Counted from the stretch's first letter, positions 5,865 to 10,840 are shown. The stretch: DNA of 13,931 nt from Candidatus Heimdallarchaeota archaeon B3_Heim (GCA_003144275.1 NJBF01000064.1:1-13931), one strand, 5' to 3'. Translations and numbers: made by a program. The notes: generated by a model not told the origin, from the letters alone.

Positions 5865-6005
5865 TCATAAGACTAGCACCCTTGTAGATAGTATCCTATT
5901 CGGGATAGCTAGCCGAAATGTGTAACTGAGTGGGGTTATATTATGGGACGAAACGGAAATCCTCCTATCGTCCCCTACACATTTTGCATAGATGAACGGT
6001 TTAGA

Positions 6006-6077
6006 GGAACTCATGACTAAATTTGTCAGATAACTCGTTAGAAGCGAGTTCTGGACAGGATGAGTCACACATCCGCT
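6006..6077 (-). ncRNA. Orphan omega-RNA (reRNA) 3' scaffold
   Basis: 31 nt identical to the tnpB 3' end (6047-6077 = 10714-10744). The hairpin has compensatory changes and the pseudoknot strand agtca is kept. The 5' and 3' limits are uncertain. Confidence 0.75.
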
Positions 6078-6192
6078 TCCAGAGAAAACCTATTCAAGGA
6101 TTGAATAAGTCTTCGAGGGACTCCTTGTTCCTATGGAGTTGACATTATCTCTTGATTCCTCAAATTTCAGTATCCACTGGTATTACATTCCT

Positions 6193-6228
6193 CGCCTTTG
6201 ACGGGTAACTCATCTAACGTAGTTACGA
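6193..6228 (-). pseudogene. tnpB: tnpB fragment just after RuvC-I (VTTLDELPVKG vs VTTSDGLLVKG)
   Basis: 32/36 nt identity to 10124-10159. Weaker similarity continues to ~6170 (cagtgg). Confidence 0.85.
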
Positions 6229-6507
6229 AGGAGCAACACCCAACCAGATTGTTTGGATTTAGTTCATCACCTCTATTTACTTGTATGGGAAGAAGAACCC
6301 CTTTTAAGGATGTTAGAGAGAGAGCGGTGAATATGACGAATACGACTTTGTCGGACAAATCATGCCATGGATTGGTTACTGGATTGTATGTTAAAACAGG
6401 TTTAGAACTAGGCATAATTTACACTGTGTCGGTTTTAAAATTCCGATAGGAATTTCCTGTATCCTTATACAAAGATAGAGAACCAATCAAAAATTCCGTG
6501 TTGATTA

Positions 6508-7748: not shown

Positions 7749-9287
7749 TCAATTTTCAGTTGTTTGGTACTGCACGTACAGTTTTTCTAGACGTTTGGTG
7801 TCAAGGTTCATACTTAATTCCTCCATTACCTCATAGATATAGTTTAAATCTGCTTTGTGGATAATATTCGAAAGATTCATTTGTTGTAGAATCTTCTGCG
7901 ATATGGGGCGCTTAGCTTTCCAATAGACAAAAGTATTAAGAAATTTCAAAACTATAGGATGCTGTAGTAAAGCATAGAAGAGAAAAGCTTCCTCTTTAGA
8001 TGAAGTAGGGAGGAAATAACTGGTATCATCAAGAACTACAGGCTTATTTTGAATAGGTCCAATTAATCGAAAATGAAGCTGTTTATGAAGACCTGAGACT
8101 CCGATTTTCCAATGAGTAAATGTATAAGGCCCCACACCAAATACTGAGAACGCAGGTTTCCCCTTATAGATTGAGCTTCCTCGTTTCTCTAGTAAAGGTT
8201 TATTACGATTTAAATATGTCCATGTCTTTGGAGCAAGTCCTTTGATTTTTGAGGTATCCTCACCAACGAATTTTTGAGGGACTATCAACCAGCGATGGGT
8301 AAATTTTACCTCATTATGAGCCAGATCAGTACTTTTGAGGAGTGGATAGAGATACGTATCCTCAAGATTCACCTTCTCATTTAGTCCATTAACATAAGAA
8401 TTTTCTTCATTTTTCAAAATCATTATTTTCGCGGCGTCGTGTTTTATACCAGATCTCCATGGGATAGAAAATTTTCCATGAAGGAAATTCATTTCTTGAA
8501 AAGACGACATGTCATTAACTAAGAGTTTATCAATTATACCAAGAGTGGAAGAGGGATTAGTTGAAGTTAGTGAGGAAAAGACAGGACATACGTTGGCTGT
8601 TCTCCCTGGTTTTATAGAACAGGTGAGTAAACACGCATCAACCGATGCGTTAAAATTAGTCGTAGCGTCAATACGGTTTATTGTTATAGTTGATACCGAG
8701 AGTCGATTCGTATTAACATATTTAAAGATTTTTCGTGCGACACTTACCTTACAGAGAATAGCTAATATCCCTGATGAATCACTCATTGCTTCAAGTAACT
8801 TTAAAATCATCCATTCTGAAATATCAAAATTACTCTTCCCAGTGATAGAATCTAAACCTGTAAACTTATGTATATTACTTTTTCGTGGAAGATTTTTGCC
8901 TTTAAGCAATCCTTGTTCTGATGAGGTGACCCATGGCAAATTTCCAAGTATTAAAATAGGTGCTGTTAATTTAGAAATAAATTCGTGCCAATTTTTATTA
9001 AAAAAATTCGTGTGTTCAAGAAAAACGACTTTTTCTTTCTTGAGCTTACCAATCTCCTGATTTAATTGTCTTAAATATTCGTCATTGAGGTCAAATCCAT
9101 ATATCTTTGTATCTGGAAACTTTCTAGTGGCTGCAAGAACGAAAGAACCCGTTCCGCAAGTAGGTTCAATAATTGTGGAAGGAGAGATCCCATCAGATTT
9201 TAATTTTGTGACAATAGTTTCAGCAAGAATCGTGGGGGTTTGGAAATCTCCGTACTCCTTAATGTACTTTCCCTTGTGTGAGTTCAT
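7749..9287 (-). CDS. Amino (N4-C/N6-A) DNA methyltransferase, solitary; resembles NspV-type modification methylases (family call from memory)
   Basis: GDFQTP (motif X), IEPTCGTGSF (motif I), GNLPW (motif IV), and C-terminal WRSGIKHD / LYPLLKS TRD-like motifs. ATG 9287 preferred because the 30 upstream codons lack a conserved look and overlap the element end motif. Confidence 0.85.
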   Translation of the reverse strand: MNSHKGKYIKEYGDFQTPTILAETIVTKLKSDGISPSTIIEPTCGTGSFVLAATRKFPDTKIYGFDLNDEYLRQLNQEIGKLKKEKVVFLEHTNFFNKNWHEFISKLTAPILILGNLPWVTSSEQGLLKGKNLPRKSNIHKFTGLDSITGKSNFDISEWMILKLLEAMSDSSGILAILCKVSVARKIFKYVNTNRLSVSTITINRIDATTNFNASVDACLLTCSIKPGRTANVCPVFSSLTSTNPSSTLGIIDKLLVNDMSSFQEMNFLHGKFSIPWRSGIKHDAAKIMILKNEENSYVNGLNEKVNLEDTYLYPLLKSTDLAHNEVKFTHRWLIVPQKFVGEDTSKIKGLAPKTWTYLNRNKPLLEKRGSSIYKGKPAFSVFGVGPYTFTHWKIGVSGLHKQLHFRLIGPIQNKPVVLDDTSYFLPTSSKEEAFLFYALLQHPIVLKFLNTFVYWKAKRPISQKILQQMNLSNIIHKADLNYIYEVMEELSMNLDTKRLEKLYVQYQTTEN

Positions 9288-9355
9288 AAACAGTATCACA
9301 AAGTAATTCATTAAGAATCTTCCTCGTAATAATGCTCTTGTCGAATTCCTTTCCA

Positions 9356-9377
9356 CATGATCAAATTTGTCTGACAA
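9356..9377 (+). repeat. Left end motif catg-atcaa-atttgtc-t-gacaa (TIR-like)
   Basis: 16/22 match to the reverse complement of 10758-10779. The same consensus occurs at 6012-6033 and 6348-6369. Confidence 0.75.
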
Positions 9378-9462
9378 CGATATTTATTAGTATAGGCTAG
9401 GAAGAAAAAAGGTTCATTTTCGTCACATTTGTTATTTTCACTGATCTCTCTCTGTCTCGAGC

Positions 9463-9468
9463 TTATAA
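9463..9468 (+). promoter_or_regulatory. TATA-like box (TTATAA) for tnpB
   Basis: 22-27 nt upstream of ATG 9490, consistent with a leaderless archaeal transcript. Confidence 0.45.
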
Positions 9469-9489
9469 GAGCGAGTGAGCCTTACTGGA

Positions 9490-10788
9490 ATGGGAATGCG
9501 TACCAAAAAACACTCTCACCCCCAGTTAGCTATCCGAATGCAGATGAAACCACGGCCCATTTTTACTGATTTGTGCACCTGCGCCAAAAATCTGTATAAT
9601 CGTGCCACCTATGAGGTGCGCCAGGAATTCTTTAAGACAGGGAAATGGATACAATATATTAGCCTCTATCATCGCCTCAAGCACGAACCAGTGTATCTAG
9701 CATTAAAGGACATTTCGGATAGTTATTTACCGCAACAAGTCCTCCGGCAGGTGGAACAAATCTGGCGGAGCTTTTTTAACGGACTAAAAGCATGGAAAAC
9801 CGATCCGACCAAATTTCAAGCCCGTCCCCGAGAGCCGAGGTATAAACCCAAGAATGGGCTGCACATGCTGAACTTTCCCCGTCCACAGGTCCGAATTCGG
9901 GAGAAACAGATTCTTTTTGCTCGGAATCTCATGGTGCGCGGCTTTCCCACTTTTTCACTCGGAACCCTTCCATTAACTGCAGAAACGTGTGTGGGAGCTC
10001 GATTGGTACCGTATTATGATCGATTTGTGGTAGAATTACTCTATGAAGTGCAAGTTCACCCTTTTCCCACCACTGATTCGTCTTCTCCCCGAGCTATGGG
10101 AATAGATCTTGGTCTTAACAACCTCGTAACTACGTCAGACGGGTTACTCGTCAAAGGCGGGGTAGTTAAAACTATTAATCAGTGGTATAACAAACAACTT
10201 GCTCATTATCGGTCGATTGCAGCCACTCACAATCAACAGTTCTCCACTCACCGGATTCAAAGTCTTCAGCGAGGGCGGATGAACCGTCTGCAGAATTTCT
10301 TCCATCAAACCTCTCGGAGGATTATCACTTACTGTTTACAGCACAATATCGATACATTGGTCATCGGTTACAATGCGAGGTGGAAACAGCACTGTAACTT
10401 AGGAAAACGCACCAATCAGTCTTTTGTTCAAATCCCCTTCCTTAAATTCGTTCAGATGCTCGAGTATAAAGCGAAACTTGTGGGGATGACGGTAGTGCGA
10501 GTAAACGAGGCGTATACTTCCCAACAATGTAGTCAGTGTGGTTATGTAGACAAACGTAACCGAAAATCGCGCGGGTGTTTCTGTTGTCGTAAATGTGGTC
10601 ATCACCTGAATGCTGATTATAATGCCGCCCGTAATATCCTTCAGCGGTATATTAACCGCAGCCAAGTAATCCCTACAGTCAGTTCACCTTCATCGGTGGC
10701 TCACTTGCCGGATAGCGGATGTGTGACTCATCCTGTCCAGAACTATTTGCTAAATAGTTGTCTGACAAATCAAGTCATAACTCCATAA
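9490..10788 (+). CDS. tnpB: RNA-guided endonuclease TnpB with a rearranged RuvC-II site
   Basis: Residues numbered from GTG 9475: GIDLG (D211), LVIGY (G298 at the canonical Glu position), VNEAYTS (E345), Zn finger CSQC/CRKC, and NADYNAARNI (D381). Start is ATG 9490 or 9496. Confidence 0.96.
   Translation: MGMRTKKHSHPQLAIRMQMKPRPIFTDLCTCAKNLYNRATYEVRQEFFKTGKWIQYISLYHRLKHEPVYLALKDISDSYLPQQVLRQVEQIWRSFFNGLKAWKTDPTKFQARPREPRYKPKNGLHMLNFPRPQVRIREKQILFARNLMVRGFPTFSLGTLPLTAETCVGARLVPYYDRFVVELLYEVQVHPFPTTDSSSPRAMGIDLGLNNLVTTSDGLLVKGGVVKTINQWYNKQLAHYRSIAATHNQQFSTHRIQSLQRGRMNRLQNFFHQTSRRIITYCLQHNIDTLVIGYNARWKQHCNLGKRTNQSFVQIPFLKFVQMLEYKAKLVGMTVVRVNEAYTSQQCSQCGYVDKRNRKSRGCFCCRKCGHHLNADYNAARNILQRYINRSQVIPTVSSPSSVAHLPDSGCVTHPVQNYLLNSCLTNQVITP
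10640..10784 (+). ncRNA. omega-RNA scaffold overlapping the tnpB 3' end; guide predicted from ~10780-10785 onward
   Basis: Stems: gcggt/accgc; ggatg/catcc (10717-10733); long bulged hairpin 10734-10767 with core aactattt/aaatagtt. Loop tgtgact pairs with agtcata (10773-10779) as a pseudoknot. The 5' limit is a guess. Confidence 0.8.
10758..10779 (-). repeat. Right end motif (reverse complement tatg-acttg-atttgtc-a-gacaa)
   Basis: Inverted partner of 9356-9377. Lies inside the omega-RNA scaffold. Confidence 0.75.
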
Positions 10789-10840
10789 CAGGACTATAAG
10801 ATTTTTATAAACTCACGTTTACATTTTAGAAGACTGATAT

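Follow-up and report, generated by a model that had tools for sequence, protein, structure and literature searches.

In eukaryotes, Fanzors represent TnpB-type nucleases carried by transposons with terminal inverted repeats (TIRs) that are moved by another enzyme, and TnpB itself cleaves within a guide-matched target and not at transposon ends. Elements of the IS630/Tc1-mariner group have short TIRs, use CTAG as target and duplicate its TA. For transposition in systems tested to date, TnpA is sufficient and TnpB dispensable (PMC6188088, PMC10691335); IS607 elements exchange DNA over a 2-bp core, have no TIRs and use GG (PMC6188088). TnpB also occurs in TIR-bearing DDE transposons, including IS630-linked forms (PMC10691335), and solo TnpB genes with matching ends are mobilised in trans (Altae-Tran et al. 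2023, PMC10691335). The palindrome-associated transposable elements (PATEs) of Haloquadratum comprise gene-less and terminal-only derivatives that are mobile without TnpA (PMC3119063). The spread of tnpB-only ('IS1341-type') elements in TnpA-less genomes is a long-standing puzzle. Here, we analysed a tnpB-only element and a gene-less derivative in a 13,931-nt contig of Candidatus Heimdallarchaeota archaeon B3_Heim (contig C69 of genome G000; the whole contig is termed the window). Their family is a clean case of this puzzle, with sharp ends, the target V-C-AT-G-A, young copies, a minimal 33-bp form and no recognisable transposase. In our view, held with modest confidence, the 22-bp motifs at the four element ends are genuine TIRs of a non-autonomous Hodarchaeales family that are read as duplex DNA by an enzyme acting in trans and joined to the target at Y-AT-R.

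A 22-bp motif at the ends of two elements

The window derives from a 3.95-Mb metagenome-assembled genome (MAG; 36% G+C, 94% complete), the nearest relatives of which are deposited as Candidatus Heimdallarchaeota or Hodarchaeota MAGs, with G013 as the closest one. The genus survey covered 22 genomes, all of them MAGs, so that a missing gene says little in either direction. A search of both strands of the window for CATG-N5-ATTTGTCNGACAA with up to two mismatches gave four sites (6012-6033, plus strand; 6348-6369, minus; 9356-9377, plus; 10758-10779, minus) versus 0.01 expected, and none of 200 shuffled controls contained four or more. These are the four inward-pointing sites already listed in a preliminary description of the window. 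They lie at the outer ends of a 1,424-bp tnpB-only element (9356-10779) and of a 358-bp gene-less derivative (6012-6369), referred to as mini. In a BLAST search of the whole genome, other copies aligned from 9355/9356 to 10778, and mini copies from 6011/6012 on; since the copies start and stop at these positions, the motifs are the element boundaries. Contigs from four sequencing runs, which were fragmentary and beyond whose reach circles or excision lay, confirmed the ends at 6011 and 10778, and in metagenome contigs the match to the full-length element stopped at 10778 and was followed by differing flanks. The copies of this element in G013 were 92% identical and located at other sites. The features of both elements are as follows.

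9356..10779, plus strand: full-length tnpB-only element, 1,424 bp including both terminal 4-mers, as delimited by the genomic copies
9356..9377, plus strand: left-end TIR (CATG, ATCAAA, TTTGTC-T-GACAA) with the dyad at 9367-9377; exact family consensus
10758..10779, minus strand: right-end TIR with the dyad at 10758-10768; at the same time 3' terminus of the predicted omegaRNA scaffold
9356..9359: left junction 4-mer CATG, composed of flank C, shared AT and element G according to filled/empty pairs
10776..10779: right junction 4-mer CATA, composed of element C, shared AT and flank A according to filled/empty pairs
9462..9469, plus strand: TATA-like box CTTATAAG, approximately 25 nt ahead of the ATG, conserved in position; putative promoter
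9490..10788, plus strand: tnpB from its first ATG at 9490 (the listed open reading frame, ORF, starts from GTG 9475); Pfam OrfB_IS605 and Cas12f1-like_TNB
10741..10759, plus strand: hairpin directly ahead of the right-end dyad, with compensatory changes (fold as single-stranded DNA, ssDNA: z -2.9)
6012..6369, minus strand: gene-less mini of 358 bp with both ends, promoter block and omegaRNA region; aligns with >20 genomic minis
6012..6033, plus strand: right-end TIR of the mini, reading inward, then covarying hairpin and TTCTGGACAGG
6348..6369, minus strand: left-end TIR of the mini, atypical at bases 5-10 (GCATGA); 16/22 identical to its own right end

Sixty-nine copies of the core dyad TTGTCNGACAA are present in G000 versus 4.5 expected. 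In 59 of these, a terminal CATGA lies 11 nt further out, at least seven of the other ten are decayed ends, and orphan dyads (approximately 3 of 69) are at chance level. The TIR pattern was counted 51, 43, 21, 6, 3 and 3 times in six genus genomes (reversed control: 0), and a pattern search gave no match in the other 16 of the 22. Inward-facing pairs in the six genomes were only approximately 360 bp or 1.42 kb apart, and pairs flank tnpB-only as well as gene-less copies. A host transcription-factor site, which the preliminary description had named as a refuting case, agrees neither with the few dyads away from element ends nor with the 16 genomes without the motif.

Empty sites and the sequence of the target

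Empty sites were found by locating the flanks of G013 elements in G000. Six pairs filled in G013 and empty in G000 had one 4-mer each at the empty site (CATG, CATG, TATG, CACG, CTTA and TAAG) and nothing of the motif. In addition, a 33-bp copy in G000 (C8:64499-64531) represents a 29-bp insertion relative to four relatives with an empty site, giving seven filled/empty comparisons in all, each with a single 4-mer kept and no dyad. The mini of the window is lacking in G018 and G020, and their loci contain neither the motif nor CATG. As the empty sites lack the motif, the repeats travel with the element; an empty site retaining the left motif, a case considered in the preliminary description, was found in none of the seven comparisons.

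These findings refute the notion that the motif belongs to the target, be it as a preference for sites resembling the element's own right end, which was one of three options in that description, or as a host transcription-factor site. One relative's empty locus by the element of the window happens to hold ATAGTCAT-like bases, and an A often comes behind the right end, which puts CATGA at both junctions. However, the seven empty sites have the 4-mer only, the empty locus of the mini has not even CATG, and the dyads outside element ends and the genomes without the motif argue in the same direction.

Where the junction 4-mers deviate from CATG, the flank dictates the outer base and the element the inner one (L036, L030, CATG/CATA of the window, C85 and C44), and variation affects the outer bases at 13 of 118 ends versus 3 of 118 for the inner ones. 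At the position of the right junction, the empty locus of the relatives reads ...GTATAACTCC. Only the central AT is shared or duplicated, the element proper is G...C, and the preferred target is C-AT-G; targets and termini read Y-AT-R, 85% of them CATG. A fixed 4-bp duplication was considered and is excluded, because only the central AT is shared in the filled/empty pairs. A 2-bp duplication, a crossover at AT and insertion after YAT fit the junctions equally and are indistinguishable. Three details of the preliminary description change accordingly. It had reported no target-site duplication, which needs amending in that both ends abut a CATG-like 4-mer present in one copy at empty sites. It had considered a left junction at TGAC 9372-75, the actual position being 9356-9359. 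It had placed the right end at 10779; base 10779 (A) derives from the flank, and the last element-borne base is at approximately 10776-10778.

Flanking bases were evaluated for 62 left and 56 right ends, the copies being not fully independent. The base ahead of the left CATG is A or C and only in 3 of 62 cases T; behind the right CATG, an A was found 33 times out of 56. The flanks are not mirror images of each other (chi-square versus a symmetric target, p = 1.6e-9): the target is V-CATG-A, whereas the right end reads T-CATG. This asymmetry suggests that V-CATG is the target-adjacent motif (TAM) of TnpB, in which case a vacated site would be cut and refilled by homing and an occupied site spared. 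Elements in T-CATG sites would then disappear over time.

Individual sites showed additional features. Beside the full-length element, the window lacks approximately 27-30 bp that are kept by all four relatives (9340-9360 and 10776-10800; L012-L015); a deletion therefore accompanied or came after the insertion, possibly as a result of repair following TnpB cleavage. The same CATG site is occupied in opposite orientation in G000 (C8:18882-19240) and G013 (L024:1501-1862) by minis of different subfamilies, which are 68.6% identical versus 91-94% for the flanks; this reflects either independent hits of a hot spot or a replacement. In G000 C82:62606-62640, a mini right end continues through a shared CATG into the initial 12 nt of a left end, beyond which the DNA is unrelated; this represents either the remnant of a head-to-tail junction or an insertion into the terminal CATG of another element; a scan for right-left head-to-tail junctions gave this one remnant only. 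The mini at 6012 appears to have landed in the loop between the arms of an inverted repeat (in relatives GGAGGAAC...GTATTCCTCC; window 5985-6012 and 6370-6400), which is intergenic and looks like a terminator between two genes.

Architecture of the ends

The ends were compared base by base in 24 complete elements. Left and right ends agree at bases 1-5 (CATGA), 8, 11-16 (TTTGTC) and 18-22 (GACAA) in 18-24 of the 24 elements, with values of 21-24 at all of these bases but 1 and 20, and almost never at bases 6-7 (TC left, CT right), 9-10 and 17. The identity of the TIRs of one element amounts to 13-19 of 22 (16 of 22 in the full-length element of the window), with two invariant blocks. Folding of the left end as ssDNA gave no stable hairpin (-1.2 kcal/mol, z +0.5), in agreement with the earlier view that a dyad with a 1-nt spacer suits duplex DNA rather than a hairpin. 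Read inward, the dyad of all right ends is followed by a covarying hairpin and TTCTGGACAGG; the compensatory changes of the hairpin distinguish subfamilies (CTATTT/AAATAG, CTCTT/AAGAG, CGCAG/CTGCG). In the consensus fold of the RNA, the terminal AGUCAU pairs with an invariant GUGACU approximately 55 nt upstream, and by this predicted pairing the omegaRNA scaffold has its 3' terminus in the right repeat. Both conservation and structure characterise the 3' non-coding block, which the minis keep; an Rfam search of the window gave no family matching the omegaRNA region. At the other end, the TATA-like box is preceded by a CT-rich tract and two to three TCATTTTC-like direct repeats, and this putative promoter block has the same position in divergent family members and minis. 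As the left end lies approximately 90 nt upstream of the conserved block, it is probably outside the element's own transcript. The TCATTTTC-like repeats are located 55-85 bp inside the left end (window 9415-9445), and family members with as little as 56% TnpB identity still have them; they may belong to the promoter as an upstream element or, as in IS607, provide additional binding sites for a transposase.

The preliminary description had also offered pairing of the left with the right end as an option. That the likeness of the ends serves RNA or ssDNA pairing, e.g. by sequestering the 3' strand of the omegaRNA, and not protein binding, appears very improbable to us. The right repeat is inside the omegaRNA and predicted to pair with upstream RNA segments, and the left end's bottom strand is nearly identical to that RNA segment. 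However, bases 6, 7, 9, 10 and 17 differ without compensation in almost every element, even in young copies that are 100% identical, the dyad pairs with itself, and a left end upstream of the TATA-like box is probably missing from the transcript.

A different explanation is single-strand transposition of the IS200/IS605 type by a Y1 TnpA acting in trans, in which the dyads would be shrunken subterminal hairpins, CAT the target in the left flank and the symmetry incidental. Outside Hodarchaeales, the nearest TnpBs are encoded by solo genes flanked by classical hairpins of the same strand, and elements of this kind are the probable ancestors of the family; insertion 3' of Y-A-T fits the junctions equally, Y1 elements have an asymmetric target, too, and the right-end dyad is located 10 nt from the end. 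These points are opposed by the left end without a hairpin, by the dyad, whose 5-bp stem is unable to close over a 1-nt loop, and by the four bases 5' of the right dyad, which vary and co-vary with the RNA hairpin and are thus unfit as a fixed guide to the cleavage site. The symmetric CATGA and AAATTT extensions would have no role, and 20 of 22 genus genomes, among them the three copy-rich ones, have no Y1. We give this explanation only a small chance.

Besides full-length elements and minis, terminal-only palindromes of 33 bp were found in which a left and a right end have one dyad in common (G000 C8:64499-64531, C35:1462-1494 and C50:11147-11179; metagenome L154:1114-1146). The form in C50 has left-type sequence on both sides. 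Either these forms transpose as such or they result from deletion between dyads.

Recent mobility and the search for the transposing enzyme

Minis that are 100% and 99% identical were found at sites with unrelated flanks, indicating that the family moved recently. The only gene between any pair of ends is tnpB, with no transposase gene there, and no inward pair wider than 1.42 kb was found in the six genomes holding the family.

A number of results weigh against recognition of the ends by an enzyme supplied in trans. Y1 TnpA (PF01797) had no match in G000 and was present in only 2 of 22 genus genomes; these two genes (G018 and G012) adjoin an unrelated TnpB (29% identity), and their ends are unrelated. 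IS607-type TnpA (NF033518) remained below the cut-off in G000, the sole resolvase of which has a classical N-terminal catalytic domain; IS607 TnpA occurs in G013, G004, G007, G012 and G016 in elements with other ends, and is absent from G000 and G020. No Cas1 was found in G000, and only 3 of 22 genus genomes have one, at loci with other CRISPR-type neighbours, without a TnpB match and without the dyad. IS630-type DDE transposases (DDE_3) were found neither in G000 nor in G013 and G020. The DDE insertion sequences of G000 (IS4-like, IS701-like and Mutator-like) have unrelated TIRs; together with two other TnpB families they constitute the multi-copy repeats of this genome, all with other ends. 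The three copy-rich genomes have no Y1, IS607-type, Cas1 or IS630 enzyme in common, and none of the tested families (Y1, IS607-type, Cas1, IS630-type DDE, resolvase) tracks the six genomes holding the family. Finally, a symmetric target would be expected from a TIR enzyme alone, whereas an asymmetric one was observed.

The enzyme is possibly encoded on an unbinned replicon. A metagenome scan with the left-end pattern gave one match, a 33-bp terminal-only form. An end fragment and a solo palindrome 2.6 kb apart (C8:61897-64531) were considered as a longer element and rejected; they enclose a host M48 peptidase gene and no transposase. True TIRs served by a trans-acting enzyme had been the remaining option of the preliminary description, and it is the best supported of the three: the repeats are element-borne, conserved beside diverging non-coding DNA, and flank tnpB-only and gene-less copies alike. 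The enzyme may be of the DDE or another class, no partner having been found.

Alternatively, there may be no dedicated transposase, and TnpB with its omegaRNA or a host enzyme acting on CATG (e.g. a CATG-specific nuclease, followed by ligation) would use the repeats as recognition sites. The known transposases co-occur with the family in none of the six genomes, every mobile unit keeps an intact and strongly conserved omegaRNA module, and the minis were recently active. Haloquadratum poses the same puzzle with mobile IS1341-type elements that lack a working TnpA (PMC3119063). However, TnpB is dispensable and TnpA sufficient in the systems tested (PMC6188088, PMC10691335). Incompleteness of the MAGs, or an unbinned plasmid or virus, can account for the missing enzyme. 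Moreover, cleavage by TnpB falls in the guide-matched target and not at the transposon ends. We consider transposition without a dedicated enzyme improbable.

Two other mobile elements were noted during this survey. A 1.6-kb element present in two copies in G000 (C30:3818-5423 and C31:8610-10215) encodes a 470-amino-acid protein without a Pfam or NCBIfam match, which by protein-language features is near Mutator/IS256 and IS6-like DDE transposases. The TIR of this element (GAGATTTCGC...) resembles that of the Altiarchaeum TnpB element L070 (TGAGTGATTTCGC...). A complete IS607-type element with tnpA and tnpB is present in G013 (L175:228-2160), its site being empty in G000 (C14:21585-21591), and G000 C33:15721-16914 contains a tnpB-only derivative of it (85% identical). 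TnpA-less derivatives of several TnpB families thus coexist here.

Origin of the ends and proposed mechanism

Among the TnpB relatives from Hodarchaeales, the inverted ends are kept as far as 56-58% amino-acid identity. At 43-47% identity, the next relatives (Promethearchaeota/Ranarchaeia) are solo genes that lack a TIR and have, at both ends, classical hairpins on the same strand, and a 35%-identical gene from Altiarchaeum has a different TIR (19/22). Given the hairpin-bearing next relatives without TIRs, the symmetric ends look like a lineage-specific replacement of IS605-type ends. Within one Asgard TnpB lineage, IS605-type ends would thus be replaceable by symmetric inverted repeats.

In the mechanism that we propose for transposition by a trans-acting enzyme, the latter would read each end as duplex DNA through the terminal CATGA and the internal TTTGTC-N-GACAA dyad, and would connect the element with a Y-AT-R target by a 2-bp overlap, AT. 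This overlap would be a 2-bp target duplication in case of a DDE-type enzyme, or an AT crossover in case of an enzyme of the serine-recombinase type. The arm of the dyad resembles the half-site of gamma-delta resolvase, another enzyme with its crossover at AT, but differs in spacing and orientation, and we attach no weight to this resemblance. The omegaRNA scaffold would have its 3' end in the right repeat. TnpB and the omegaRNA would cut the vacated site, consisting of V-CATG and then the right flank, after which the element would be copied back; occupied sites, in which the right end reads T-CATG, would be spared. Of this scheme, the data establish the ends, the target, the AT overlap, recent movement and the want of a transposase encoded in cis, and we infer duplex recognition, the enzyme class and the TAM.

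A more far-reaching proposal is that Hodarchaeales TnpB/omegaRNA elements are moved by an enzyme class new to TnpB, or by TnpB itself or a CATG-specific activity of the host, with the enzyme reading the bipartite 22-bp TIR and joining at the AT of CATG. We regard it as rather unlikely. If true, it would be a third route of TnpB mobilisation beside Y1 and serine TnpA, in the archaeal lineage closest to eukaryotes, and would parallel the Fanzors, TnpB relatives that likewise ride TIR transposons in eukaryotes. A new partner enzyme would widen the set of transposition systems that recruited RNA-guided nucleases.

The tnpB gene product and neighbouring reading frames

The tnpB gene product matched the NCBIfam model guided_TnpB with 223.6 bits as well as Pfam OrfB_IS605 and Cas12f1-like_TNB. 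The aspartates of RuvC-I and RuvC-III and the zinc finger are intact; the canonical glutamate of RuvC-II is replaced (...VIGYNARW..., residues ~285-300, window 10330-10400), and a glutamate is found instead in NEAYTSQ (window 10500-10520). Judged from its sequence, the catalytic site of the protein is rearranged, as in the cases that PMC10691335 catalogues. The frame runs through the right TIR to a stop at 10786-10788 in the flank, and homologues are approximately 10 residues shorter.

A 94-amino-acid antisense ORF within tnpB (10402-10683, minus strand) recurs in the copy with 93% identity and, at about the same position, in one with 76%, whereas a 70% copy lacks it; codon usage probably gives rise to it as a by-product. 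On the minus strand, a 542-amino-acid ORF (7752-9377) begins at a TTG within the left-end dyad. It encodes an N6-adenine DNA methyltransferase, the gene of which more likely starts at ATG 9287, 69 bp from the element.

Comparison with known systems

The family behaves as a TIR transposon with derivatives resembling miniature inverted-repeat transposable elements, and it does not qualify as a member of IS200/IS605 or IS607. A TnpB with an omegaRNA at the right end is a trait that it shares with both. As no transposase was found, it cannot be placed in a DDE family. With IS630/Tc1-mariner it shares short TIRs and a palindromic tetranucleotide target, the central dinucleotide of which may be duplicated here as well, but this dinucleotide is AT in CATG and not TA, and G000, G013 and G020 have no DDE_3 gene. 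The TIR transposons carrying Fanzors are similar in that a TnpB-type nuclease is carried by a TIR transposon moved by another enzyme; they differ in their eukaryotic or viral hosts and in their identified transposase superfamilies. In contrast to the Asgard Cas1-TnpB transposons, there is no Cas1 next to tnpB.

As in IS607, exchange may take place over an identical 2-bp dinucleotide, the target is otherwise hardly specific and not duplicated over a longer stretch, and TnpA-less tnpB derivatives occur in the same genomes; the two to three direct repeats within the left end may correspond to the short repeats of IS607; the IS607-associated TnpB of G013 is 38% identical to the TnpB of the family. 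The ends of IS607, however, are not TIRs, they end in GG and the target is GG, and the IS607 elements of the genus have neither the dyad nor CATG ends.

The IS1341 group of IS200/IS605 and the PATEs (PMC3119063) have in common with the family the tnpB-only and gene-less derivatives that keep their ends and are mobile without TnpA. Terminal-only forms arise in Haloquadratum by deletion between near-terminal palindromes and comprise 52 bp versus 33 bp here. Those elements have no TIRs; a long palindrome lies close to either end, and they enter the DNA 3' of a sequence of 4-5 nt, whereas the ends described here are symmetric, with an 11-bp palindrome and no hairpin on the left.

In end structure, the family is close to the TIR transposons of PMC10691335, in which tnpB is likewise located near the right end, the inverted ends are symmetric, and solo copies seem to depend on a transposase elsewhere. 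The differences are that the 22 genus genomes contain no DDE or other transposase with these ends, and that the family uses a CATG target with an AT overlap, is confined to Hodarchaeales and encodes a TnpB with a rearranged RuvC-II. TIR-bearing TnpB elements have thus already been published (PMC10691335), and the family is a further variant of them.

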